Source of the DNA: Candidatus Magasanikiibacteriota bacterium
GTDB taxonomy: Bacteria; Patescibacteriota; Patescibacteriia; Magasanikbacterales; GWA2-37-8
Length of the DNA: 64,000 nt
Direction: 5' to 3'
Assembly: GCA_041666745.1 (NCBI GenBank)
Contig: JBAYGI010000005.1
Location: 7,748-71,747, forward strand
The position numbers and the translations under genes are program-made. The notes under the pieces are model-generated. The model saw only the letters and a list, made by a program, of their open reading frames with translations, was not told where the DNA came from and did not search any database. Positions 5,022 to 29,584 of the stretch are shown piece after piece (within the stretch, counting starts at the first letter, position 1; each line of letters starts with the position of its first letter).

Positions 5022-6306
5022 AATGTTCTAAAATTTCTCTAGCGGCGGTACGATCATCCCAAGGAATTTTTTCTCCGTTGGCAATAGCGATATACGGCTC
5101 AGTTCCTTTGGCGGTAAGCACAACCACATCTCCGGATTTTGCCAAACTAAAAGCTTTTTGAATACCTTTGAAACGATCAATCACTACAAATAAATCCTGT
5201 CCTTCTTTTTTTCCGGACAATACCGCGCCTTGAGCCAACATCTGAGCAATCTGCATCGGGTCTTCATCAAAACAATTTACATCCGAAATCACAATATAAT
5301 CACAAAGTTTGCCGGCGATCTCCCCCATTTTCGAACGCTTGGCAACATCTCGCCCACCACCATCAGAACCGATCAAAGCGATTATTTTGCCTTTGGAAAT
5401 TTTTCTTAAAGTTGTAAACAGTTCGGTCAAACTCATTGGTTCGTGAGCGTAATCCACAACTACTTTAAAATCTTGTCCCGCGTTGATAAACTCCATGCGT
5501 CCATCTATTTTCGCAATTTCTTTCAAACCGTTTGCTATTTTTTCTTCGGAAATATTTTGAGTTTTGCCGACCGCTATGGCGGCCAAGGCATTGTAAGCAT
5601 TGAAATCACCGACCAAATTTATATGATAATTTTTGTTATCCACTTTGAAACGCACCCCCAGCTCATCTGAAGACAAAATTTCTCCTTGTAAAACCTGTGA
5701 AACATTTGGGTTGGTTTTGGCATGCAAACTATAACCCACTTTTTTATCCGCCCAATATTTTAAATAAAATTCAGCGTTTTCATCATCTAAATTTACCGCG
5801 ATAACTTTTTCAATTTTTTTATCATTTAAAATTTTGTGAGAATATTTTTTTAGAGCAGAAAATAATTTGCCTTTGTCCGCTTTGAGATTTTCAAAACCTC
5901 CGTGGCGTTCACTATGTTCGGTACCCAAATTTGTAAAAACAGCGACGTCGTAATGCAAACCATAATGACGATATTGCAAAATCCCTTCAGACGATGTTTC
6001 CACTACCGCATACTGACAACCGGCTTCTACCATCTCCGCAAGCATTTTTTGAATTTGCCCCAAACCAAGCATGGTCATTTTTTTATCATTGAGCCAACGT
6101 TTTTCACCGATTTGAAACTCAACCGTCGACATCAAACCGACTTTGTACCCACCGGCTTTCAATACTTCGGCAATAAATTTGCAGGTGGTGGATTTCCCTT
6201 TCGTGCCTGTAACTCCCACTACGATTAATTTACGCGCTGGGCGACAATAGTACCAATATGCCACCAAAGCAATTATTAGATGTTTTAGATTTTTGATTTT
6301 TTGCAT
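4999..6306 (-). CDS. Mur ligase family protein (no N-terminal domain; MurT/FolC/CapB-like architecture)
   Basis: P-loop VVGVTGTKGKSTT at residue ~30 and a Mur-ligase central/C-terminal region with DYAHEP. 435 aa. Confidence 0.65.
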   Translation of the reverse strand: MQKIKNLKHLIIALVAYWYYCRPARKLIVVGVTGTKGKSTTCKFIAEVLKAGGYKVGLMSTVEFQIGEKRWLNDKKMTMLGLGQIQKMLAEMVEAGCQYAVVETSSEGILQYRHYGLHYDVAVFTNLGTEHSERHGGFENLKADKGKLFSALKKYSHKILNDKKIEKVIAVNLDDENAEFYLKYWADKKVGYSLHAKTNPNVSQVLQGEILSSDELGVRFKVDNKNYHINLVGDFNAYNALAAIAVGKTQNISEEKIANGLKEIAKIDGRMEFINAGQDFKVVVDYAHEPMSLTELFTTLRKISKGKIIALIGSDGGGRDVAKRSKMGEIAGKLCDYIVISDVNCFDEDPMQIAQMLAQGAVLSGKKEGQDLFVVIDRFKGIQKAFSLAKSGDVVVLTAKGTEPYIAIANGEKIPWDDRTAAREILEHYVASQKN

Positions 6307-6317
6307 AAAGCCCGATT

Positions 6318-6890
6318 TTAGTTTCTAATGGTAACTTCATAAACCACCTGCTCCAATTTTTGCAACGCTTGTTTGGCTTGATCAAATTTATTGCGATGAT
6401 AACCGGTCAAATCCATATCCATCAATTCACCAATAATCTCTTCAGCGTATTCGTAACATTTTTTTGTTAGATCAAAATTACGAGCAGTGGCCGCCCGAAT
6501 CGCATAACGACACAGCTCACCCGGTACATCACACAGACCGCTGATAAAAGCATCGGAATCCACCTCCACTACTTTTATTTTACCAACCGGTTTTTCGTGC
6601 ACATAGCTATTGAACAACACCGCTTCGACATATTCTTCCAAAGCGGCTTTGTAAGACCCCTCACCAAACAAGCGTCTGTCTGCCTTGAATTTTTTATTCA
6701 TTTCCAAAAGCAAGCCCTCAGCCAACTTCAGTCTTTCGCTACCACCTTCTTTATCATCGCGCTGGAGAGCAAAAATGGCCTTCTTAGCGTGTTGTTGAGC
6801 GTCACCTGACATCTTTATAACCTCACGTCTTTTTTGAGCATAGCTCAACAAATCTGACCTCACCGATTGAATATATTTCTTATCTAACAT
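6318..6890 (-). CDS. hypothetical alpha-helical protein
   Basis: 190-aa ORF with good coding periodicity. No diagnostic motif recognised. Confidence 0.4.
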   Translation of the reverse strand: MLDKKYIQSVRSDLLSYAQKRREVIKMSGDAQQHAKKAIFALQRDDKEGGSERLKLAEGLLLEMNKKFKADRRLFGEGSYKAALEEYVEAVLFNSYVHEKPVGKIKVVEVDSDAFISGLCDVPGELCRYAIRAATARNFDLTKKCYEYAEEIIGELMDMDLTGYHRNKFDQAKQALQKLEQVVYEVTIRN

Positions 6891-7009
6891 AAATTATCCA
6901 CTTTAAAAGTTAAGGGCACTTGATTTTTTATTGATTTTATTATATCATTCTTTTTGTTGTTTTGTCTATGCAAAATATACCCTCCTTCGCCAAGGCTATG
7001 GCGGGCAAA

Positions 7010-7082
7010 ATGGGCCGGTAGCTCAGCTGGTAGAGCAGATCCCTTTTAAGGATAAGGTCCCGGGTTCGAGCCCCGGCCGGCC
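7010..7082 (+). tRNA. tRNA-Lys (anticodon UUU)
   Basis: GGGCCGGTAGCTCAGCTGGTAGAGCAGATCCCTTTTAAGGATAAGGTCCCGGGTTCGAGCCCCGGCCGGCCCA. Anticodon loop CTTTTAA. No encoded CCA. Confidence 0.8.
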
Positions 7083-7130
7083 CACTAGAAAAAATACTCC
7101 AACTTGTTGGGGTATTTTTGTATATAATTA

Positions 7131-7263
7131 CGGCCGGGGCTCGAACAAAGGGGTGGTGGGGAAAGTATTTCCCCACATTGCTGAGGAAGGCTTGTGGAAA
7201 CCCGAAGGTTTCCGCAGGAGGATCCGCCGACAGGCGGAGACGACGTTCGCGCCCCGGCCGGCC
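7131..7263. other. structured GC-rich element bounded by an inverted copy and a direct copy of the tRNA-Lys 3' end
   Basis: 7131-7146 (CGGCCGGGGCTCGAAC) is the reverse complement of the tRNA T-arm/acceptor 3' half. 7246-7263 (GCGCCCCGGCCGGCCCAC) directly repeats tRNA 7066-7083. The interior carries GC hairpins (GTGGGGAAAGTATTTCCCCAC, GGAAACCCGAAGGTTTCC, CCGCCGACAGGCGG) in an AT-rich genome. Confidence 0.35.
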
Positions 7264-7316
7264 CACAAAGCAAAAACCCTCCGATTTGATTCGAAGGGTT
7301 TTTCTTTTTTATCTCT

Positions 7317-9314
7317 TTATTTCTCCGGACCAACATGCACACCTATTTTTGCCCCACCGGAAATTGATTTTCCAAAATATGTCAATTCCACATAAGGCGC
7401 ATCTTTTTTGAGGGTGTATTTCTTTTTTATATCAAGCTTCAAAGCTATGTTGGTACTTTTGGCGCCAGTCATTTTCAACCAAACATAGTTGTTGTTATAT
7501 TTAGTAACTTTAAATTGAAAAGCTACTCCACTATAAATAAATGATTTGTTGGTGCAAATAGTATAAACACCATCTACCCCTTTTTCATCAGTACAACTTT
7601 CACTGTATGAATCCTGCAAAGAAGTATTGGAATCTACTTTGAACAACGCCCTACCTTCGGCTCCGACACCAATATAAGTTATAGTCAAATATTTTCCCGG
7701 CTTATTGACAACATAGAAAGTTTCCGGAGTATTTAAAACCAAGTCTGCATCTTCTTCACTCAAGCCTGCGAGCTCTACATTGGCTTCCTCACCATCATTG
7801 CTAATCACTTTTATTTTTGTTCCACTCCAATAGTGATCAATAGCAAAACCATTACAAATCAAAACATTACTATTTCCAGATTTTATATCACTACAAGCTG
7901 GCAAAGGTTTGGTGGTTGGAGAGGAAGTGGCGGTAGTGGCGTAGGAAAAATTTACATAATCAGACCACTGGCCGGTAAAGCCATTTGGAAACATTGGTAA
8001 AACTCTAACTTTAAATTGACCGTCTCCCCATAATGGCGCAGTTTGCAAAGTGTTGGAATAAGTTTTCCATTTCATAACCGCTGACCACAATGGTTGAGAA
8101 CATTTTTCACAAGCTACTTCTACTTGATATTGGTTGGCATTATCTACTTTTTTCCAAATTAAATCCACAATTCGTGGGTAGTTTGTAAGAATAGAACCAT
8201 TGTCTGGTGAAGTAATTGTGGTTTTGGCCATTTCATCAACCCACGGAGTTTTGTTATCATCACTTTTTGGTTTAGCCAAGCAAGTTCCATCCGCACAACC
8301 ATATGGACATTTGTACCACTGAGTATGAACATAATTTTTACCACTGGCAGAACTGCAATGTGTTTCAGCTATAAAATTTCCTGACACTTTATTTTTATCA
8401 CCAATATATATACCACAAGAATCAGGATACACATCATAAGCTCCGGTTAATTCATCGTTACCGGTAGCGATACCAAAAACATTGTAATTTAATTTGTCGG
8501 TTTCTGTACATTTGGCATTTGGAGTAGCAACTGGTTTAATTTTGCACGCTCCTTTAAAACAACCATAATCGCATTTGTACCACTGGTCATGAACTTTGCC
8601 ATAAGAACAATTTTTTTCATCAATATAAGCACCCTCGGATTTTCCTGAATCCCCAACATAATTTCCACAACTATCTTCAAAAGTACCTTTGGATAAACCA
8701 TTTTCTGATTGACCGGTGGCGTTACCAAATACATTGTAATCCAAGCCTTTATCACTTTCACTACAAGCTGGAGTTTCGACGGGAGTTGGAGCCGTCATTT
8801 TTAAACAAGCGCCATTTTCACAACCGTTTTCACATTTATACCACTGGGTATGCACATAGCCATTGGAACAATTACGTTCAGCTATATATGAGCCTTTTTC
8901 TTTATTTAAATCACCTACACTGGCACCACAACTATCATTTACTGTAGCTATCGAAGTTGAACCCTCAATAATACCAGTCGCCCAACTGGAAGTGTAATAA
9001 TCTAATCCACTATCGCCTTCCGTACAACTAATTTTGGTGGCGGTTGCAGAGTCATCACAAGGTTTCCAATTTACATAATATTCAGTATCTGAAGTACATT
9101 TCATGGTATAAAACTGATAACCATACTCGGTTTTTCGACAAGCGGTCGTCAAAACATAAGTAGAATTATCTCTTGTTATCTGAATATCGTTGCCAACTTG
9201 TACACATTTGGTCACAGCTACTGGATTCCCACCAACATCTGGCAAAGCATACGTAGCCACTGGCACTGCCAACAAAAAGGCAAATACCACTAACGAAAGA
9301 AAAATTTTCTTCAT
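7317..9314 (-). CDS. secreted protein with three tandem Cys-rich modules
   Basis: Signal peptide MKKIFLSLVVFAFLLAVPVATYA. Three approximately 95-aa repeats each ending WYKC(E/D/P)xGCxxGxC(L/K)…. Confidence 0.6.
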   Translation of the reverse strand: MKKIFLSLVVFAFLLAVPVATYALPDVGGNPVAVTKCVQVGNDIQITRDNSTYVLTTACRKTEYGYQFYTMKCTSDTEYYVNWKPCDDSATATKISCTEGDSGLDYYTSSWATGIIEGSTSIATVNDSCGASVGDLNKEKGSYIAERNCSNGYVHTQWYKCENGCENGACLKMTAPTPVETPACSESDKGLDYNVFGNATGQSENGLSKGTFEDSCGNYVGDSGKSEGAYIDEKNCSYGKVHDQWYKCDYGCFKGACKIKPVATPNAKCTETDKLNYNVFGIATGNDELTGAYDVYPDSCGIYIGDKNKVSGNFIAETHCSSASGKNYVHTQWYKCPYGCADGTCLAKPKSDDNKTPWVDEMAKTTITSPDNGSILTNYPRIVDLIWKKVDNANQYQVEVACEKCSQPLWSAVMKWKTYSNTLQTAPLWGDGQFKVRVLPMFPNGFTGQWSDYVNFSYATTATSSPTTKPLPACSDIKSGNSNVLICNGFAIDHYWSGTKIKVISNDGEEANVELAGLSEEDADLVLNTPETFYVVNKPGKYLTITYIGVGAEGRALFKVDSNTSLQDSYSESCTDEKGVDGVYTICTNKSFIYSGVAFQFKVTKYNNNYVWLKMTGAKSTNIALKLDIKKKYTLKKDAPYVELTYFGKSISGGAKIGVHVGPEK

Positions 9315-11920: not shown

Positions 11921-14866
11921 TTAAATACTTTGAAGTTCGATTAATAATTTTTCCATCTGTTGTTTGTCCGGATTTTTTTCAGCTGAAACCAACGCTAATT
12001 CTTGACCGATTTGTTTTCTTCTTTTTTTTGACCATTCATCTTTTATTTGCACTATCAATTCGGCCAACTCATCTTTAATCGAATCTTCTTCAATATTTTC
12101 CACCTGAATTTGGGCGATCATTTTTAAATTCTCAAAATCATCTTTGGATTCTGATTCATCAAAAAAACTTCGCCAAACTTCAACAGTATTGGCTTGGTTA
12201 GTATTATAATGTTTTTTTATGATTTCGTAAAGGTGTCCATAAAAACTCCCCTGCCAGCAACCGTCTTTTAAACCTGACCACAAAGAATTGATATATTGCG
12301 GAGAAAAAATCAAAATCATCAAAAATCTTTTTAACAACATGTCCAATCTATCCAAATCCGCCGCGCTTTTACTGTTTTCTTTATCTTTATTCTCTAGATT
12401 ATTTTTTTTGTTTTTGTCAAAACGTTTTATGTCATCTCTCAACACCGACGTGTCCGTACCCAATCTTCCCGCCAACTCTTTTAACCAGTAGTCTCTTTCG
12501 ACTGCAAACGGGATTAAATTGATAATCGGCAAAAGTTCATTGGCAATTTTTTGCTTGGCTTTTGGTTCAGAAGTATTTTTATTTAAAAAAGCCATTTCGA
12601 AAAACCAATGTAATACATCATCGGAATTTTTTACCGCCAAAAACCATACCTCCGGATTTTGTTTCAAACATTCATCGGCATCTTTTCCTTTTCCTTCCGG
12701 AATACGAATCGCTTTCACATTCAATCCCTCACCTAGAGCGATATCTATTCCGCGCTTCGCCGCTGCCACTCCGGCCGAATCACCGTCAAACGCCATGGCG
12801 ATATTGTTGGAATAGCGTTTGAGTAATTTTATTTGTTCTAGAGATAGAGCCGTACCGGAAGATGCCACCACATTTTTCATCCCCGCCTGATGACAAGCGA
12901 TCACATCCATTTGCCCCTCTACTAATACAACCAGATCCTGTGCTTTTATTTCAGTTTTGGCTTTGTCCAAACCATAGATCACTCGCGACTTGTCATAAAC
13001 CAAAGTTTGCGGTGTGTTTACATATTTTCCGCCACTATTTTCGGTCTCTACCAAAACTCGTCCGGTAAAACCAACTACATTTCCATGCACATCCCAAATC
13101 GGAAACATTATTCGTCCGCGGAAACGATCGTAAAATCCTTGTCCGGCGCGCGCCACATCTTTTTTTATTACCAAACCGGCCGCCACCAAATCATCGACTC
13201 CGATTCCTTTTTTTAAAAAATATTTTGTTAATAAATCCCACTGATCCGGGATAAAACCAATTTGCCATTTTTCGATTGTTTCTTTTTTCAAACCACGTTT
13301 TTCCAAATATTCACGCGCACCTTTGGCACCTTCCATCTCAGTCAAAATATGATGAAAAAAATAAGCCGCCTTTTGGTTGATTTCCAAAATGCGATTTTTT
13401 TGACTTTTATCTATTTCACTTCGATAGTTATCTATTTTTACCCCGGCGCGATCAGCCAATAATTTCAAAGTTTCAGGAAAATCCAGCCCCTCCATCTCTT
13501 GTACAAAAGAAAAAATATCTCCACCTTTTCCGCAATTACTAACTGCAAAATTCTCGGTCAAATACGAATGATCTTGTGATACGGTCAGATTAAAAACTGG
13601 CCCTTCAAAACTAGAACTTGTAATTTTTTTAATCGGATAGATAACAAACTTAGTCTCGCCATCCACCAGCCAATCCGTATATTTCGCTTGGACATCCTCG
13701 TACCACATTACATGGTATGACTTTTTATGATGGACTCCACGCTTATCCGTTTTTTCTTGATGTTGAAAAATACTAGGGATAATATTCAATCTCAACAATA
13801 TTTCCTTTAGTTGAAAAACTAAACTGTGTGATATCGTACTAACACTCCTATAATCAGGTCTTGATTTTTTACCACCTTTACTATTATGTCCGTCCCCTCG
13901 AAATATAGCTTCCAACAATATCCTTTGTTTACTAAAAGGCAGATACTCCCAACCATAAGGGATATGTTTATTGGCCGCGCCTTTGCCACATAAATTTTCA
14001 AAAATATTTGCTAAATTTGAATTACAACATGTTATTTCCAATCCAGTTTTTTTACCAGAACGTTTATGAATTGAAGCATTAATATTAAAAATGTTTTTAC
14101 ATAATTCAACAATATCCTGTGCGAATACCGGTTCATGACTGCCAACACTAAATCTTATATATCCACGATGATTACTACCTTCGGCTATCCAATAACCCAC
14201 TAATTTCAAAAAATCTTCGTTAATTTTTATATATTTAGGTAGCGCAAAAATCTTTTTGCCGACATTTTTTTTACCACGATTAAGATAATCAAAAAGTTTA
14301 ATTCTATTAATTTTAATTACTTTATCAACGACAGGATACAATAAATAATCATTCAATTTTAATTCGCCAGCGGAAATTTCTTCTATTTTATAACCTCTAA
14401 AAAATTTATGCGGGCAATTTTGTTTGCATTGTTTTTGGCACAATCTAGTCGCTCTTGATTTCTGTATACAATTCTTAGTTCTAACACAAAACACTTTGTG
14501 ATCATTTGTAATTTTTACTGGCATGTTTGATTTACGAATATATATTTGTCTTAACCCTCCCGAATAATTTCTAATCAGAGCACGAACAACATTGCATAAC
14601 TGTCCTTTGTGAGTATAAACAGAATCACCCACTTTAATATCCTCTATTTTGGTATGTCCACATTTAGTACGAATGAATGTTCCTGCCGGAAAACAACCAA
14701 AACATTTCCAAATTTGCTTTTCGGAATTGACCATGAAAGACGGCGTTTTTTCCTTGTGAAAAGGACACGGCGCTTTCCAATAAATGCCAGCTTTTTTGAG
14801 TGGCACATATTCTTGGATGGTCTGCACAATGTCAAGTTTTTCTTTGATGAGTTGAGTATCAGCCAT
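11921..14866 (-). CDS. dnaG: DNA primase DnaG with an in-frame intein
   Basis: Zn-ribbon CPFHKEKTPSF…KCFG, then the intein, then CGKGGDIFSFV. Primase/TOPRIM motifs follow (…VLVEGQMDVIA…AFDGDSAG…). 981 aa against about 590 aa for an intein-free DnaG. Confidence 0.85.
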   Translation of the reverse strand: MADTQLIKEKLDIVQTIQEYVPLKKAGIYWKAPCPFHKEKTPSFMVNSEKQIWKCFGCFPAGTFIRTKCGHTKIEDIKVGDSVYTHKGQLCNVVRALIRNYSGGLRQIYIRKSNMPVKITNDHKVFCVRTKNCIQKSRATRLCQKQCKQNCPHKFFRGYKIEEISAGELKLNDYLLYPVVDKVIKINRIKLFDYLNRGKKNVGKKIFALPKYIKINEDFLKLVGYWIAEGSNHRGYIRFSVGSHEPVFAQDIVELCKNIFNINASIHKRSGKKTGLEITCCNSNLANIFENLCGKGAANKHIPYGWEYLPFSKQRILLEAIFRGDGHNSKGGKKSRPDYRSVSTISHSLVFQLKEILLRLNIIPSIFQHQEKTDKRGVHHKKSYHVMWYEDVQAKYTDWLVDGETKFVIYPIKKITSSSFEGPVFNLTVSQDHSYLTENFAVSNCGKGGDIFSFVQEMEGLDFPETLKLLADRAGVKIDNYRSEIDKSQKNRILEINQKAAYFFHHILTEMEGAKGAREYLEKRGLKKETIEKWQIGFIPDQWDLLTKYFLKKGIGVDDLVAAGLVIKKDVARAGQGFYDRFRGRIMFPIWDVHGNVVGFTGRVLVETENSGGKYVNTPQTLVYDKSRVIYGLDKAKTEIKAQDLVVLVEGQMDVIACHQAGMKNVVASSGTALSLEQIKLLKRYSNNIAMAFDGDSAGVAAAKRGIDIALGEGLNVKAIRIPEGKGKDADECLKQNPEVWFLAVKNSDDVLHWFFEMAFLNKNTSEPKAKQKIANELLPIINLIPFAVERDYWLKELAGRLGTDTSVLRDDIKRFDKNKKNNLENKDKENSKSAADLDRLDMLLKRFLMILIFSPQYINSLWSGLKDGCWQGSFYGHLYEIIKKHYNTNQANTVEVWRSFFDESESKDDFENLKMIAQIQVENIEEDSIKDELAELIVQIKDEWSKKRRKQIGQELALVSAEKNPDKQQMEKLLIELQSI
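13535..14695 (-). mobile_element. intein (387 aa) with LAGLIDADG homing endonuclease, inserted in the DnaG zinc-finger CFG|CG site
   Basis: The intein begins CFPAGTFIRT… (Cys1) and ends …NFAVSN, followed by a +1 Cys. Two LAGLIDADG-like motifs are present (LVGYWIAEGSNHRGYI and LLEAIFRGDGH). The exteins rejoin as …WKCFGCGKGGD…, the canonical DnaG sequence. Confidence 0.7.
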
Positions 14867-15605: not shown

Positions 15606-16655
15606 ATGAAGAGCTTTTCGATTCGCGCCGCAATCGCACTGATGGCGGCAATCACTCTCTCCACCCTCGCCGGCTGTGAGGGCTGTACCGGACGGGTTCC
15701 GGGCGGCTACGTCGGCATGGTCATGACCCCGAGCGGGTTTAACGGGGACATCCTTGCTCCCGGCAATCACTCCTGCTACGGCAAAGACAGGATGTACCTG
15801 CTCGAAGTGAGCGACACCCAGAAGGCCGTCGAGATCAACCAGTTGACCACCGACAAGATCAACTTCAAGGCGTCCATCGGAGTGCTTTTCTCGGTGGATC
15901 GTGGCAACAAGCAGGCGATCAAAGACGCGTTCGACAACCTCACGGCGGTGCAAACGGCCGACGCGAAGGTGTTCGTAATCTCCGCCGAGTATCTTTTCAA
16001 GACCTACGTCATGGCGATTGCGGACGAGCAGGGAAGAAAAGTATATTCAAGATACGAATCTTCAGAGGTGGTGTCCAACCGCTCGAAGATTGTCGAGGAG
16101 GTCCGAACCGGAGTCGTGACGGCCTTCCAGAACGGCCTAGTCAAGATCAAGCAGGTCACGGTCAACAACGATGACTTTCCGCACGACGTGAATATGTCTT
16201 GGGAGGCGCGTGCCAGGAAGATCATCGACACCGAGACCGAAAAGGCCGAGCAAACCCGACAACTGATCATCAAGAACAATGAGTTGGCGCTGGAGACACT
16301 CAATTACCAGATCGACTTGGTCAAGGCGGCGAACGTCGCCGACTCGAACAAGATCATCGGCTCGTCCATCACGCCCGAGTATCTGGCATACCAACAGATC
16401 AAGGTCATGGGCGACGCGGCCAAGGGTCCGAACAACTGGGGATTCATCCCCTTCACGGACTATGCCAACGGCAAGGTCAACGGTGGCCCGGCCGACCGCC
16501 TGACAAGCAAAGGTCTGGTCGACGCCGAGCTGATCAAGAGGATTCAGGATGCGCGCCAGAAAGGCGCCGACGCCAAAGCCCAACAGGACAAGGCCAAGGC
16601 ACCCACGGCACCGCCTCCCGCCGATCCTCCGGCGGCCGCTCCTGCCACTCCGTAG
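15606..16655 (+). CDS. SPFH/band-7 domain lipoprotein with Pro/Ala-rich C-terminal tail, in GC-rich island
   Basis: Strong SD AGGAGA. Signal peptide with lipobox LAGC. SPFH-like core. C-terminal …APTAPPPADPPAAAPATP. High GC3. Confidence 0.6.
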   Translation: MKSFSIRAAIALMAAITLSTLAGCEGCTGRVPGGYVGMVMTPSGFNGDILAPGNHSCYGKDRMYLLEVSDTQKAVEINQLTTDKINFKASIGVLFSVDRGNKQAIKDAFDNLTAVQTADAKVFVISAEYLFKTYVMAIADEQGRKVYSRYESSEVVSNRSKIVEEVRTGVVTAFQNGLVKIKQVTVNNDDFPHDVNMSWEARARKIIDTETEKAEQTRQLIIKNNELALETLNYQIDLVKAANVADSNKIIGSSITPEYLAYQQIKVMGDAAKGPNNWGFIPFTDYANGKVNGGPADRLTSKGLVDAELIKRIQDARQKGADAKAQQDKAKAPTAPPPADPPAAAPATP

Positions 16656-24878: not shown

Positions 24879-24951
24879 CGGGCTGTAGCGCAGTTGGTAG
24901 CGCGCGTGGTTCGGGACCACGAGGTCGCAGGTTCAAATCCTGTCAGCCCGA
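24879..24951 (+). tRNA. tRNA-Pro (anticodon CGG)
   Basis: CGGGCTGTAGCGCAGTTGGTAGCGCGCGTGGTTCGGGACCACGAGGTCGCAGGTTCAAATCCTGTCAGCCCGA with C1:G72. Putative promoter TTGAAA-17-TACGCT at 24801-24829. Confidence 0.8.
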
Positions 24952-26409
24952 CAATTCGGCAAAAGAGCAGTTTTTGGAGACCTCTGCCATACTTTGGTAG
25001 GGGTCTTTTAGTTTAAAACTAGCCAAAGTTTTGTTTTCAATAGTAAGGTTCCAAAGTATATTTCCGAGCACATTACGTTTTCTCAAATCATCACGTTGTT
25101 CAAATTCTTTTTTGGCTCTACTGGCGGTTAAAAACTTGTTTTTCGTAAGTTCCAAAGTAGTTTCACTGTTAAAATGTTTTTGTTGTAATGTTTTAAGTTG
25201 GCTTTCAGTAGCGGTAACTTCGTTGTTCAATGATTGTATTTTTGCGTTGTAGAGGTCTTCGGATACGTTACCGGCCAAATAGCTGTCCACGAGCTTGGAT
25301 TGCTTCTCACGGGCAAGCGTAAGCTGTTTGGTGAGATTCTGTAAGGCGGTTTCGGTATAGGTTTTGTCGTGTCCTAACTCTTCCTTTTTAGCTAAATACA
25401 TTATTTCGATTATTTCCTCGTCAAATTCAATATCGCTAAATATTTTAGACATGATATTATCGACACTTTCCGAGCGTAGGTATTTTTTGTGCTGTTCACA
25501 GTTGCCTTTGCCATTAGTGCAGTAATAATAATCGTGGCCTTTTTTGTTGGTAGCGGTTAAGGCACAACCGCAGACATGGCAGTTCATTAAACCACGATGT
25601 AGAAAATTGTGGGTTTGCTTCCGGCTTTTGTTTTTGCCATTGATAATGCTTTGAACATTATCAAAAAGTTCTTGACCGACAATCGAGGTGTGAGTGCCAA
25701 CAAAATATTTTCCGTTCTGCACAACAAAACCGCAATGTACCGGATTAGTAAGCGCGCGATGTAAAACGCTTTTGTGGACTTTGTAACCGCCGAGCGTTCG
25801 CAAACCTTTGTCGTACATGACATTTACTAAATCCTTTATGCTGTAATTTCCTGTTTCGTAAAGATTAAACATTTCCACTATGTTCGGTGCCCGAACCGGA
25901 TCAGGATAAATAATCTTGTTGGCTTTATCATTTAAATATCCAAACGGGGCTTTTGTCGGCCAACCGCCTTTTTCTATTTTCGTTCGTATTCCTCTTTTTA
26001 CGTTCGTGCTTAAATCGTCAACATATTTTTTGGCAATACCAAAATCTAAACTCATGAAAAATTTATCGTCCGAGATATTTTTGTAAATCTTTTCAAAAGT
26101 TCGAATTTCCACAATTAGTTTTCTGTCCATGAACCAAGATAATTGGCCACCGTCCAAAGCGTTGCGAGCGAGGCGGTCTAATTTCCAAACGTATAAAACA
26201 CATTGGCCACGTTTTTCAATATAGGCCATTACTTCTTTGAAAACTGGACGACCCGGAGCTTTGGCCGACATACTTTCGCTAAATATCTTGTCAAAAACAA
26301 TACCGTCCCGTTCAGCAAGGCGTTTCATTTCGTTTGTTTGTGATTCAATTGATAAAACTTGTCGATCCTCGGATTCAGTGGATTTGCGACAATAAGCGAT
26401 GTATTTCAT
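24943..26409 (-). CDS. large serine recombinase (integrase)
   Basis: N-terminal resolvase catalytic domain (MKYIAYCRKSTESEDRQVLSIESQ), recombinase domain, Cys-rich zinc ribbon, coiled coil. The 3' end overlaps the tRNA-Pro 3' end by 9 nt. Confidence 0.8.
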   Translation of the reverse strand: MKYIAYCRKSTESEDRQVLSIESQTNEMKRLAERDGIVFDKIFSESMSAKAPGRPVFKEVMAYIEKRGQCVLYVWKLDRLARNALDGGQLSWFMDRKLIVEIRTFEKIYKNISDDKFFMSLDFGIAKKYVDDLSTNVKRGIRTKIEKGGWPTKAPFGYLNDKANKIIYPDPVRAPNIVEMFNLYETGNYSIKDLVNVMYDKGLRTLGGYKVHKSVLHRALTNPVHCGFVVQNGKYFVGTHTSIVGQELFDNVQSIINGKNKSRKQTHNFLHRGLMNCHVCGCALTATNKKGHDYYYCTNGKGNCEQHKKYLRSESVDNIMSKIFSDIEFDEEIIEIMYLAKKEELGHDKTYTETALQNLTKQLTLAREKQSKLVDSYLAGNVSEDLYNAKIQSLNNEVTATESQLKTLQQKHFNSETTLELTKNKFLTASRAKKEFEQRDDLRKRNVLGNILWNLTIENKTLASFKLKDPYQSMAEVSKNCSFAELSG

Positions 26410-26429
26410 AACAAGAAAAATTAAGATTG

Positions 26430-27239
26430 TTACTGAGGCTTATTTAACACCAAATCAAACAGCCATGCAAGTGCTTTCGGATCGTTCCTAACGTCGTAAG
26501 TTGTTCTTGTTATTTTTCCACAATGTTTGTTATCAAAACTCACCGTGTTAATTTTCGTTTCTTCCGGCAACAATTCCACCACTAAACTAACCAAATCTTT
26601 ATCATACAAAACCGTCCAGCGTTTCAATCCCTTACTGGCAAAATATTTCTTTCGACCTTTTAATCTTCCGTCTTTCAAATTCTTTGTCATATACTTTACC
26701 ATATACCGGCCAAGGTCTTTTACATTTCGTACCGACTTCACGTTAATATTTCCATGTCGCCATATTCGTTTTATTTCGTCATACACTTTTTCAATAAATG
26801 GCAGATTGAAAAACAAAACATGATAGTGAATTACACCCTCTCTTGTTTTGTCTTGAAACTCCGTAACGGCGATGTAATGCAAAAAGTGTTTTTTTGAACC
26901 GCCAACAAAATAGTTAAGGCGTTGCATAGCGACCTTAAAAAAACTACTGGCAATATCCAAATCACGAATATCGTCCTCAAAAGTGAATGTAACAAAAATG
27001 GGCAGGTACGATGTGCCGTTTGCTTTTAACCATTTATGAGCGTTGGAATTTACAAGACGACGGACAGCCGACTTTGCACGATTGGCCGAGCTAATTTCGT
27101 TTTCTTCCGGCGTGGTCAAAGGGTGTCCGGTTGAAGTGTGTTTTTTACGATTGTCGGGGCCATACTTGATTGGCTGTTCCATAAAATCATATTCGACGAT
27201 ATGACCGGCAATCGTTATTTTCTGATTAGTAAATTGCAT
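26430..27239 (-). CDS. rolling-circle replication initiator (HUH Rep, phiX174 gpA/plasmid Rep-like)
   Basis: Motif I PIFVTFTFED, motif II HUH VIHYHVLFF, and motif III with two catalytic Tyr GRYMVKYMTK (YxxKY). Confidence 0.65.
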   Translation of the reverse strand: MQFTNQKITIAGHIVEYDFMEQPIKYGPDNRKKHTSTGHPLTTPEENEISSANRAKSAVRRLVNSNAHKWLKANGTSYLPIFVTFTFEDDIRDLDIASSFFKVAMQRLNYFVGGSKKHFLHYIAVTEFQDKTREGVIHYHVLFFNLPFIEKVYDEIKRIWRHGNINVKSVRNVKDLGRYMVKYMTKNLKDGRLKGRKKYFASKGLKRWTVLYDKDLVSLVVELLPEETKINTVSFDNKHCGKITRTTYDVRNDPKALAWLFDLVLNKPQ

Positions 27240-27269
27240 ATATTTTTCGGCGTAAGTGTTGTTTTAATA

Positions 27270-27400
27270 GAAATAACAGTGAGTGAACGGCGAACCGACG
27301 AGCGAACGAGTGAGCGACGACGAAAGCCTTAATCGGCAAAGCCGGTTTCCACAGGTCGCAATCGGGCAATTATTGCGACCCGTGGAAAGTCAATTAAAGT
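27270..27400. repeat. iteron-like GC-rich direct repeats plus a 16-bp imperfect inverted repeat (putative double-strand origin or recombination site)
   Basis: GAGTGAACGGCGAACCGACGAGCGAACGAGTGAGCGACGACG (degenerate GAG(Y)GAACG units), then TTCCACAGGTCGCAAT…ATTGCGACCCGTGGAA. Confidence 0.4.
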
Positions 27401-27691
27401 GGTGCTGACCGGTCTGGTGGTGGTTCATTGTCCCAGAACAAACCAAAAAGTTCCGCATAGGAATGCAGATATTGATTGGCCTGTTCAATAGTGATAGTTT
27501 TCTTTAAACGGTTTAAAAAATACAGTTGCAGGCGTTCGATGAGTTGTGGACTAAAATCTATGAGCATAGAAAATATTGAGGTTCTATGCCCTTTGTGGAC
27601 GAAATTTCGCTGTGAAACAAAAAAATCCCTTTGTTCTCACGAATCAAAGGGATTTTTTATGTTTACACCAGCCGAGAATTTTCCCGCCTCA

Positions 27692-28732
27692 TCAAACAGG
27701 CTTTAGAAATTCTCTTGATATTTTTGTTGTGTCGTAGATGTTCCGGTCTTTCCAATCATCTCGAAATTCCGGATCGGGTAATAACTTTATTTTTATCCTA
27801 TATTCCATATTTTCTTTGTCAGTTTCATAAAATGGGTCATCGGTAATTTGGAAATAGTCTTTGAGGTGTTGAGTGAGTGTTTGTTTTTGCTTTTTGCGTT
27901 TGGCTTTATCGGTGCCGGACAAGCGAGTGAGTGGAAAAACGCCGTTGCCGAGAGCGAGTAAGTTTAATAACTCCCAGCTTAATTTTGGTTTGGTTTCGTT
28001 GGGTTTGCGTTTGTCGGCAAAGCCCATTTGCTCGTGATTGGCGATGTATTCTTTGGTTTTATGTTTTATTCGCACTTCGTATTGGCTCCGAAAAGCAATT
28101 TCTAAATCTTCCCATTTACTATCCGGTGTTAAGCCAAGTTGTTTGACGGCCTCGGTTGGTTCTTTGGTAGTGGTGATGTTCGGCGATACCTCGTATTCTG
28201 CCAGCAAATTCATGAGCCGATGATGAAATTCATATACAGCACTTTTAATTGAAAACTGGAAACGGTATGACCCTCGCTCTATTCTGTTTTTAATGACTTC
28301 AATTTTCTTTTTAAACGGGATACGCAATATTAAGATTTGGTATGGTGTTTTAGAGAAAGCCAAACCCCAAGTGTCCAATTTCATTTTGTCTTCCTCGTGG
28401 TTTAGATTTTCGATTGGATTGTAAACAAAGCCGATTAAATATTCGTATTGTGCCCATAAGTGAAAGTGGTCAAAGTTGGACATTTGCAATGCAACCATTT
28501 CGTCTGATAGTTTTTGTTTTTCTAAATCCACCATGAAATGATACCAGCGTTTGTTTTCTTCAAAGATTAAGTCCTGTATGAGTGGGGTGGCCTCAACAAA
28601 TGCCATGTAGTCGTAAATTTTGGGAAAATCTACCACAAACACAATATTACCGTCCTTGTTTTTTGTTTCGGTGTAGGTAAGCGAAAAACGACGGTCGAGT
28701 TCTTGTTTGATTGTAGAAGTTGCGGTATTCAT
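27692..28732 (-). CDS. hypothetical protein (possibly cargo of the integrated element)
   Basis: 346-aa ORF with no recognisable motifs. Sits between the putative origin and trmB. Confidence 0.35.
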   Translation of the reverse strand: MNTATSTIKQELDRRFSLTYTETKNKDGNIVFVVDFPKIYDYMAFVEATPLIQDLIFEENKRWYHFMVDLEKQKLSDEMVALQMSNFDHFHLWAQYEYLIGFVYNPIENLNHEEDKMKLDTWGLAFSKTPYQILILRIPFKKKIEVIKNRIERGSYRFQFSIKSAVYEFHHRLMNLLAEYEVSPNITTTKEPTEAVKQLGLTPDSKWEDLEIAFRSQYEVRIKHKTKEYIANHEQMGFADKRKPNETKPKLSWELLNLLALGNGVFPLTRLSGTDKAKRKKQKQTLTQHLKDYFQITDDPFYETDKENMEYRIKIKLLPDPEFRDDWKDRNIYDTTKISREFLKPV

Positions 28733-28780
28733 ACCGCTATATTTTGGACGAAAAAGACGTAAAAGTCAAAGTTGACGAAT

Positions 28781-29584
28781 TTATACAGTCCTTAAGAATT
28801 TATCTGTAAGTTGTGGTTGAGCTTTGATTGGTTTTGATAATGGCCAAATCACTTCAAATTGTGTTTTTATCAAATCAACAAAATCGCGACTGTGAATAAC
28901 AAAACCAAAGCTCTCGGCACGAGAGGAAATAAACGCCACCTTGTCAGCATAAAGCCAATAACTCATATTCCACGTCATACTCTTTGGTGCTAAACGTAAT
29001 TCTCGCAAATGACCCTTACCCACCCCTAAAAACGGATGAGTTTTGAAATCTACTGCTTTGTCTCTCGGCCAAATTCCTCTAATTGAAATGCCTTGCTTTA
29101 TTCGTCTTCGGTTTAAATCCTCTAAATATTCTTTTCCTAAAATCTCAACCATTTCGCTAATTGGCCACATAGTTAAAGTTTCAATATCTTTGTACCACAA
29201 CATATCTTTTAAAACCTGCTTGATACCGGCCACGCCCGAATAGAATTTTATCTTTGGTTCCAAGGCTTTTGTTTTTGAAATTAAGTTTGGCAGTAAGTCG
29301 CTAATCGCTTGGTCGTTTTTCTTTAGATTCTCGATCCTTGAACGGACTAAATGCTGTAAATTTTTTACATCATCAACACTAAATAACTTTTTATTTTCTT
29401 CCTCTTTTTCAATTACCAAACCGCTGTTAATCAATACTTTTAAGCCATCATAAACAGTCGGGCGAGGTAGGTTAAGGTTTTCAGCCAATTGGCGAGCCGA
29501 GGAAAAGCCAGATTCTAAAAGACGGTCATAAATCCTTACACTATTGTCCGAAAACCCAATTTCTTTAAGTATTTTTTCTATCAT
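28781..29584 (-). CDS. TrmB-family transcriptional regulator
   Basis: N-terminal wHTH MIEKILKEIGFSDNSVRIYDRLLESGFSSARQLAENLNLPRPTVYDGLKVL. 267 aa. Divergent from the ABC transporter operon. Confidence 0.6.
   Translation of the reverse strand: MIEKILKEIGFSDNSVRIYDRLLESGFSSARQLAENLNLPRPTVYDGLKVLINSGLVIEKEEENKKLFSVDDVKNLQHLVRSRIENLKKNDQAISDLLPNLISKTKALEPKIKFYSGVAGIKQVLKDMLWYKDIETLTMWPISEMVEILGKEYLEDLNRRRIKQGISIRGIWPRDKAVDFKTHPFLGVGKGHLRELRLAPKSMTWNMSYWLYADKVAFISSRAESFGFVIHSRDFVDLIKTQFEVIWPLSKPIKAQPQLTDKFLRTV

Follow-up and report, generated by a model that had tools for sequence, protein, structure and literature searches.

The question raised by this locus is whether four neighbouring genes, which follow the tRNA-Pro(CGG) gene in a 64-kb stretch of DNA (the window, meaning the whole stretch that was analysed), belong to the host chromosome by descent or form a mobile element that was inserted there. 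The window comes from an 80-kb metagenome contig of an uncultured Candidatus Magasanikbacteria (Patescibacteria; candidate phyla radiation), a lineage to which the host is assigned by its pilT gene beside the tRNA, and the genes in question are four open reading frames (ORFs) on the minus strand, whose products are, in order from the tRNA, 488, 269, 57 and 346 amino acids (aa) long. An earlier note on this DNA had read them as an integrated replicon with a serine integrase and an HUH-type Rep at tRNA-Pro, and this core reading is supported by comparison of related genomes and of further copies of the element. The unit is probably a 3.8-kb integrative mobile element, which would be inserted at tRNA-Pro by its serine integrase, excised, and replicated as a rolling circle by Rep. 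In what follows, L-numbers (L002-L105) denote comparison loci or contigs, and coordinates without an L-number are those of the window (Table 1).

Insertion at a tRNA-Pro gene

The synteny of tRNA-Pro(CGG) with pilT downstream of it is kept in approximately 20 related Magasanikbacteria genomes that have neither the integrase nor the Rep at this locus. L016 and L054, the closest two of these relatives, have the same 49 nt at the 5' end of the tRNA gene as the window. Copies of the element occur at other loci, with nucleotide identities of 89% (L003 and L004) and 85% (L006, L007 and L008). When the window is aligned with L003, L004 and L008, homology spans 28770 to 24878 and ends at both sides; the copies in L003 and L008 abut tRNA-Pro(TGG), the gene of a different isoacceptor, and the far flank of the L003 and L004 copies holds other genes than that of the window. 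Since the relatives keep the synteny without the element and the copies sit at other tRNA-Pro genes, the four genes are evidently a mobile insertion, not ancestral genes. The earlier note had proposed that the element be delimited by looking at the tRNA-Pro site of relatives, and the junctions identified by alignment with the other copies give a unit of 3,815 bp (3,817 bp in L003).

The junctions can be placed closely. The T-arm and acceptor strand of the tRNA beside each copy differ from copy to copy and pair with their own 5' half, and element-type sequence is seen only after ...CCCGACA; at the far end, homology begins at ...AAAAGTCA. The only sequence common to the two attachment sites, attL and attR, is CAA, and such a 3-bp core without a long direct repeat, which is found in L003 as well as in the window, is as expected from a serine integrase. 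The tRNA is left whole because the crossover falls 1-3 nt past the discriminator base. In this respect the earlier description of a "classic integrase-at-tRNA" arrangement does not hold, as the term fits tyrosine integrases and the crossover here lies just past the tRNA with 3 bp shared. The predicted attP reads ...GTAAAAGT-CAA-TTCGGCAAAAGAGCAG..., its left arm also given as ...GACGTAAAAGT, and the predicted empty attB reads ...CAGCCCGA-CAA-AGTTGACGAATTT.... In the attP reconstructed from 28739-28769 and 24955-24982, a direct repeat, G(C/T)AAAAG, flanks CAA in both the window and L003, where an inverted repeat would be expected. When the TrmB-like and PilT proteins of the flanks were looked up by exact sequence, the source contig was the only result, so that no conspecific empty site is at hand.

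Other accounts of the junctions and of neighbouring insertions were considered and rejected. The segment 28772-28797 is not the displaced 3' end of the host tRNA, as a crossover in the T-arm would require, since T-arms and acceptors co-vary with their own 5' halves; nor is the tRNA cargo of the element, since relatives that lack the element keep the same synteny and the tRNAs beside the copies have different anticodons (CGG as opposed to TGG). Insertions of 4-6 kb that extend from tRNA-Pro(GGG) to tRNA-Pro(CGG) in L017 and L036 hold ordinary metabolic genes and are not further islands of this kind.

All four genes are under purifying selection. In comparisons of the window with L003 or L006, the ratio of nonsynonymous to synonymous substitution rates (dN/dS) was 0.05-0.07 for the integrase, 0.02-0.06 for Rep, 0.05-0.07 for the 346-aa protein and 0.14-0.35 for the 57-aa ORF, and synonymous divergence (dS) was 0.2-1.0; low dN/dS together with dS of up to 1.0 indicates genes kept by selection in copies that are not recent. 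The word "domesticated", used in the earlier note, is thus replaced by that of a mobile insertion under purifying selection. The same note had held that its reading would fall if the Rep motifs aligned with no rolling-circle family and the genes were syntenic and universally present in relatives; the motifs do align, as described below, and the genes are neither.

The serine integrase

The 488-aa product is assigned by profile and motif to the large serine recombinases. It matches Resolvase (PF00239, 7.7e-20) and Recombinase (PF07508, 7.4e-12), and phrog_95, annotated "integrase", covers residues 1-461 (9e-75). Zn_ribbon_recom (PF13408) scores 25.1 bits, just under its cut-off of 25.3, with a CxxC...CxxxxxxxC pattern present, and the NCBIfam models XisF and CcrA/B/C match under their cut-offs. 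The catalytic-domain motifs YCRKS(10)TE and WKLDRLAR, with the serine nucleophile, are found in the sequence.

As the earlier note had stated, the recombinase gene ends within tRNA-Pro, the overlap being 9-10 nt. The stop and the last two codons lie within the tRNA gene, which supplies them across attL, and the integrase of L003 is 506 aa long because its ORF reads further into tRNA-Pro(TGG). As the ORF enters the target tRNA, the C-terminal tail of the integrase would depend on the state of integration. Runs of the integrase ORF into the target tRNA were seen in all three serine-integrase relatives, L012 (12271-12346), L046 (6038-6110) and the window (24943-24952), the overlap measuring 10 nt in the window and 39 and 42 nt in the other two.

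A two-tyrosine rolling-circle Rep

The 269-aa product carries the three rolling-circle replication (RCR) motifs recognised by the earlier note, LPIFVTFTFED, HYHVLFF and RYMVKYMTK, in that order. It matches PF23343 (REP_ORF2-G2P) with 68.3 bits (cut-off 27.8; E = 7e-19), as well as phrog_3584 (1e-16) and phrog_3419 (8e-14), PHROGs that are annotated as rolling-circle initiators. An alignment of 21 homologues, with identities as low as 33%, shows no variation at T84, T86 and F87 (motif I), at H138-Y139-H140 (HUH) or at Y179 and Y183 of the YxxKY motif. The nearest named relatives are the Rep of pHT926 (7e-34) and Rep5 of pGTG5 (1e-31), with 31-33% identity over 91-97% of the length, and inovirus and microvirus Reps give partial-length matches of 24-39% identity; the plasmid Reps are nearer than any phage Rep and match over full length. 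No relative of solved structure was returned by a sequence search of known structures, and IMG/VR holds distant relatives of the Rep only. By motif and homology the protein is assigned to the HUH two-tyrosine rolling-circle type, like the Reps of pHT926 and phiX174.

The most distant member of the Rep family is encoded by a pair of circularly permuted 4.3-kb contigs with a Zot gene. These contigs, L099 (1-4326) and L100 (1-4323), come from separate sequencing runs and are circular permutations of one genome of about 4.3 kb, with terminal overlaps of 30 and 27 nt; their genes encode a PF23343 Rep, a 187-aa Zot (PF05707), a 372-aa protein and several ORFs of 53-71 aa. The genome looks like an unusually small filamentous phage.

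A candidate origin upstream of rep

The stretch 14-38 nt ahead of the rep start codon (27253-27277, minus strand) is a conserved 25-nt A+T-rich motif, GTTATTTCTATTAAAACAACACTTA. L003 and L006 have exactly this sequence; in L010, L012 and L096, which encode Reps of about 50% identity, the motif persists with 3-5 changes within DNA that can otherwise no longer be aligned. The motif can be aligned, column by column, to CTGTTAACTTGATTATAGCGACACATTA in pHT926 and likewise to an ACTTGAT motif in each of pGTG5, L098 and L099, the Zot phage. The nick sites of replicons of the pC194/phiX174 type are CTTGATA-type sequences. Because the motif is conserved and aligned with a plasmid motif that resembles this nick sequence, 27253-27277 is likely the nick region of the double-strand origin. 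In pHT926, pGTG5 and relatives, G+C-rich hairpins lie directly upstream of the motif at the equivalent position, and the G+C-rich block and hairpin of the window (27276-27388) are probable accessory or binding sites.

The earlier note had placed the origin or the att core within 27270-27400, in a G+C-rich block of degenerate 9-nt direct repeats with a 16-bp inverted repeat. Part of this account stands. The block 27276-27330 is indeed G+C-rich (58%, as compared with about 38% around it), and the inverted repeat is real, with arms of 17 nt at 27346-27362 and 27372-27388. The 9-nt repeats are not borne out: self-similarity of the block is best at offsets of 4, 8 and 12 (0.43-0.45) and is 0.11 at offset 9, even the best periodicity is not significant (equalled in 157 out of 2000 shuffled sequences), and no repeat in 27276-27330 was called by Tandem Repeats Finder. 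The att core is not here either, since the att sites are the CAA at the element ends, and the best candidate for the origin is the motif beside the block, not the 9-nt repeats. Among the copies, the block varies by small insertions and deletions.

The hairpin formed by the inverted repeat follows directly after the stop of the 57-aa ORF, and in L003, L005 and L006 its stem is kept and its loop is variable; it is a candidate origin accessory, single-strand origin or terminator. A further stem-loop (27611-27667), between the 346-aa gene and the 57-aa ORF, looks by eye like an intrinsic terminator and is possibly a candidate single-strand origin; a consensus terminator scan did not list it.

The 57-aa and 346-aa proteins

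The 57-aa ORF, which the earlier note had missed, is called as a gene in L002, L005, L006 and L007, has homologues in L003 and L006, and gives a weak match in L012. Its product is hydrophilic and has no match in Pfam, PHROGs or NCBIfam; it is a candidate for a small DNA-binding or directionality factor.

The 346-aa hypothetical protein is as the earlier note described it. Nothing specific was returned for it by Pfam, PHROGs, NCBIfam or a PDB sequence profile, and a profile search gave about 50 clusters, none of them annotated. An AlphaFold2 model (pLDDT 80) has a helical bundle in residues 1-190 and a conserved C-terminal alpha/beta domain in residues 200-320; it has no match in BFVD or PDB, and the predicted model shows no capsid fold (jelly-roll VP1/F). 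Outside Patescibacteria, homologues are the first gene of small tyrosine-integrase islands without a recognised PF23343 Rep (L103, L105), and because homologues head such islands, a general role of the family in integrative elements is suggested. The homologues in L103 (7001-10522) and L105 (1955-6886) are distant and about 300 aa long; one of these contigs measures 2.3 Mb, and one island of the set carries a ParB_N-methyltransferase gene.

A modular family

A search with the Rep returned 30 clusters, nearly all unannotated and one of them named Magasanikbacteria. The order of 346-aa homologue, small ORF, Rep and integrase recurs in L003, L006, L010 and L012. Of these, L012 has a serine integrase and adjoins tRNA-Asp(GTC), and L010 (Magasanikbacteria GCA_017991415.1; 3409-12348) has HTH_17 and tyrosine-integrase genes and adjoins tRNA-Asp(GTC) too. 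Two direct copies of a 21-nt segment from the 3' end of tRNA-Asp, 7.19 kb apart, mark the limits of the L010 relative. Its defence-like cargo consists of SMODS/AGS_C (CBASS-like) and DUF559 genes, and it stands in tandem with a second element that has HTH_17 and a tyrosine integrase; the pair looks like a small defence island that grew by accretion at a single tRNA. A distant integrase-Rep pair in L046 (GW2011_GWA2_56_11; 6038-8819) overlaps tRNA-Glu(CTC). In the same locus, at 2717-2904, about 120 nt with homology to the 3' end of the integrase gene follow right after tRNA-Pro(CGG) with no element present, which looks like the scar of a lost or deleted copy. Taken together, these loci show a modular family in which serine and tyrosine integrases have been exchanged on one backbone and still target tRNA genes.

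It is conceivable, if distinctly unlikely, that this family (346-aa protein, small ORF, Rep, and a serine or tyrosine integrase that can be exchanged) is a hitherto overlooked lineage of temperate elements in Patescibacteria, minimal in size and with single-stranded DNA. The 346-aa protein, which also heads small tyrosine-integrase islands in unrelated phyla, would then be a new protein of packaging, transfer or control of excision and not cargo, and the elements would either spread by themselves or be satellites of tiny Zot phages such as L099.

Proposed life cycle and competing explanations

In the proposed cycle, the large serine recombinase would join a circular attP to the 3' half of tRNA-Pro and about 20 bp downstream of it, with crossover in CAA. 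The element would later be excised as a circle with the help of a directionality factor, for which the element offers just two candidates, the 346-aa protein and the product of the 57-aa ORF, both chosen by position only. Rep would then nick the 27253-27277 motif on the minus strand, by alignment between T27269 and A27268, and host helicase and polymerase would carry out the remaining steps; replication as a rolling circle is proposed because of the homology to pHT926-type Reps and the conserved origin-like motif. Integration, the limits of the element, its junctions and the modularity of its family are the parts shown by comparison of loci. The four products include no capsid protein, Zot ATPase, coupling protein or secretion protein, so that spread would have to rely on a helper element or on DNA uptake.

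Several observations weigh against this scheme. No excised circle was found, the predicted attP junction being absent from IMG/VR and from JGI metagenome contigs; the precise empty attB is likewise absent from the JGI metagenome contigs, and the small contigs with close copies (L003-L009) have no terminal overlap and are not circular. The copies have diverged (dS 0.6-1.0), so that no very recent transposition is documented. The att arms have no dyad symmetry above chance (at best 9 of 22 complementary positions at any centre); since known sites often have little such symmetry, it is the exact core that becomes less certain, not the family assignment. The window clade reads TTTCTAT where the plasmids read ACTTGAT, with TTTCT at the positions aligned with ACTTG, so the position of the nick is a guess from the alignment. 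No directionality factor, single-strand origin or transfer function is recognisable in the element. Finally, Reps of the same family in streptococcal integrative mobilizable elements (IMEs) have been interpreted as relaxases and not as replication initiators (PMC5357655).

This last point leads to an alternative in which the element would itself be an IME: Rep would act mainly as a relaxase that nicks an oriT at the same motif, a helper conjugative or pilus system would export the strand, and replication would be secondary. The integrases of streptococcal IMEs are of the tyrosine or the serine type; elements with an RCR protein of the PHA00330 type have a compact layout of pHT926/PHA00330 "relaxase", excisionase and tyrosine integrase, and both swaps of integrases and accretion in tandem are on record (Coluzzi et al., 2017, PMC5357655); the link from PHA00330 to the Rep of the window is a tblastn match to the pHT926 Rep. 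Exactly such a set is found in the L010 relative, where HTH_17 accompanies Rep and a tyrosine integrase and a further integrase element lies in tandem, and an integrase at the element end adjoining an RCR-type Rep is found in the window, L003, L006, L010 and L012. The likeness extends to small size, an outward-facing integrase at one end with a pHT926-lineage HUH protein alongside, exchange of integrases, site-specific integration into the 3' ends of conserved genes, tRNA genes among them, and the presence of tandem and decayed copies. The streptococcal elements differ in that their hosts are Firmicutes and they use the coupling protein TcpA, whereas in this Patescibacteria element the position of TcpA/VirD4 is taken by the unrelated 346-aa orphan; the window element is also smaller, at 3.8 kb, and its serine integrase targets a tRNA gene, whereas those of streptococcal IMEs mostly disrupt protein genes. 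A coupling protein (TcpA, VirD4 or any P-loop/ATPase) is absent from all four products as judged with Pfam, PHROGs and NCBIfam, whereas among 118 streptococcal IMEs whose relaxase is RCR-related, 83 have a TcpA gene (PMC5357655), and the flanks of those loci that were inspected showed no genes for conjugation. Moreover, the nearest named Reps come from plasmids of 1.5-1.8 kb that encode little else, in which the protein is most simply a replication initiator. Transfer as the main role of the window Rep is considered unlikely.

The element could instead belong to a filamentous (Tubulavirales) phage, as its satellite or as a defective prophage that retains only genes for replication, integration and regulation, with a helper phage supplying coat proteins and Zot ATPase and packaging the single-stranded DNA of the element. 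RS1 and TLC of Vibrio cholerae are packaged by helper phage in this way. The Rep family reaches both the circular 4.3-kb genome with Zot and small ORFs (L099/L100) and the Reps of inoviruses and microviruses, and PF23343 is named after phage Rep proteins. A further parallel is phiRSM, an inovirus of Ralstonia solanacearum and hence a rolling-circle replicon, which integrates at tRNA-Ser by its own serine recombinase (PMC4471427); it differs in having a small enzyme of the resolvase/invertase type, a 13-bp core, and coat and assembly genes, whereas the window element has a large enzyme, a 3-bp core and no virion genes. The element encodes no Zot (PF05707), no hydrophobic coat-like ORF and no capsid fold, its Rep is nearer to plasmid than to phage Reps and lacks a close relative in IMG/VR, and there is no helper phage on record for this host, all of which makes a satellite quite improbable.

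That the element is an immobile relic of an old integration, its genes kept because they now serve the host (the integrase, say, as a recombinase in development or regulation), is very improbable: it would agree with the lack of a circular form or empty site, the age of the copies (dS 0.6-1.0) and the remnant in L046, which indicates that such elements decay in place, but the element is intact and conserved in all four genes, in its origin motif and at both junctions, distribution among related genomes is patchy, the same element sits at different tRNA-Pro genes with relatives at tRNA-Asp and tRNA-Glu, and Rep, which has no obvious use to the host, is among the genes under purifying selection.

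Relation to known systems

The preferred reading, an integrative element that replicates as a rolling circle, has its closest Rep parallels in pHT926 (Brevibacillus borstelensis, 1,786 bp) and pGTG5 (Geobacillus sp. 1121, 1,540 bp), which share the Rep and the arrangement of a hairpin and then a motif upstream of rep, and which differ in being free Firmicutes plasmids without an integrase and in reading ACTTGAT instead of the TTTCTAT of the window clade. A second comparison is with actinomycete elements, although the RepSA Pfam model matches the Rep of the window with E = 0.09 only. Integrative and conjugative elements of the pSAM2 type in actinomycetes replicate by the rolling-circle protein RepSA after excision, and pSAM2 targets tRNA-Pro. 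These elements resemble that of the window in integrating at tRNA genes and differ in having a tyrosine integrase with an excisionase, an FtsK-like transfer protein and a size of 9-24 kb, whereas the window element is of the serine type and has no FtsK-like gene (PMC2440964).

The pairing of a serine integrase with a rolling-circle replicon is less unusual than the earlier note had held, phiRSM and the streptococcal IMEs being precedents (PMC4471427, PMC5357655). The element extends a known class to a new host group and does not overturn current understanding; it is notable chiefly for its small size and its host. The searchable literature yielded no account of this family, nor of any Magasanikbacteria element that bears an integrase, and little is known about mobile elements in this group. 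Few genetic tools are known for the group, and a 3.8-kb unit with defined ends, a tRNA-targeting integrase and a probable origin is a natural starting point for integration or shuttle vectors. Through this family an orphan protein also comes to light that is conserved and stands first in small integrative islands of several phyla.

Features of the element and other parts of the window

Table 1. Features of the integrated element and its flanks, in window coordinates (a full point in the strand column marks features without strand)
Feature	Position	Strand	Basis
Host tRNA-Pro(CGG) / attB left arm (3' half: T-arm and acceptor strand)	24879-24952	+	ARAGORN; Rfam 24879-24951, 71 bits
attL crossover, CAA	24952-24954	.	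Junction alignments and att reconstruction
Whole integrated element, 3,815 bp with one CAA copy	24955-28769	-	Homology limits against L003, L004 and L008; junctions
Large serine recombinase (integrase), 488 aa, by assignment	24943-26409	-	Pfam and PHROG profiles
HUH rolling-circle Rep, two tyrosines, 269 aa, by assignment	26430-27239	-	PF23343, motifs, plasmid homology
Candidate double-strand origin nick region, GTTATTTCTATTAAAACAACACTTA	27253-27277	-	Conservation and plasmid alignment
G+C-rich block, purine/pyrimidine-skewed, weak 4/8-nt periodicity; possible Rep-binding region	27276-27330	.	
Inverted repeat, 17-nt arms, 9-nt loop	27346-27388	.	94% complementary; single-stranded DNA fold z = -3.4
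Conserved 57-aa ORF, not hydrophobic	27394-27567	-	Gene calls, homologues, dN/dS
Stem-loop, 23-nt arms, T runs	27611-27667	.	Inverted repeat, 83% complementary
346-aa core protein	27692-28732	-	Helical bundle and C-terminal alpha/beta domain
Promoter-like site ahead of 346-aa gene: TTGACT, 17 nt, CAAAAT	28741-28769	-	Consensus match only
attR crossover, CAA	28767-28769	.	Homology to other copies stops; host flank beyond
TrmB-like gene, host flank past attR	28781-29584		

The promoter-like site ahead of the 346-aa gene has its -35 hexamer at the attR junction, and the count of such sites in the region is at chance level.

Two other parts of the window are also worth recording. Between 15000 and 16700 the G+C content is 51-56%, as opposed to about 38% elsewhere, and the genes found there encode a 349-aa protein of the Band_7/SPFH type (15606-16655, Pfam match) and a 165-aa ORF; this segment may be horizontally acquired DNA. 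At 11921-14866, a 981-aa DnaG-primase-like ORF has an apparent intein-like insert, seen by eye in the translation only, in which a block that starts with Cys and a LAGLIDADG-like segment (LVGYWIAEGS) follow the zinc-finger region.

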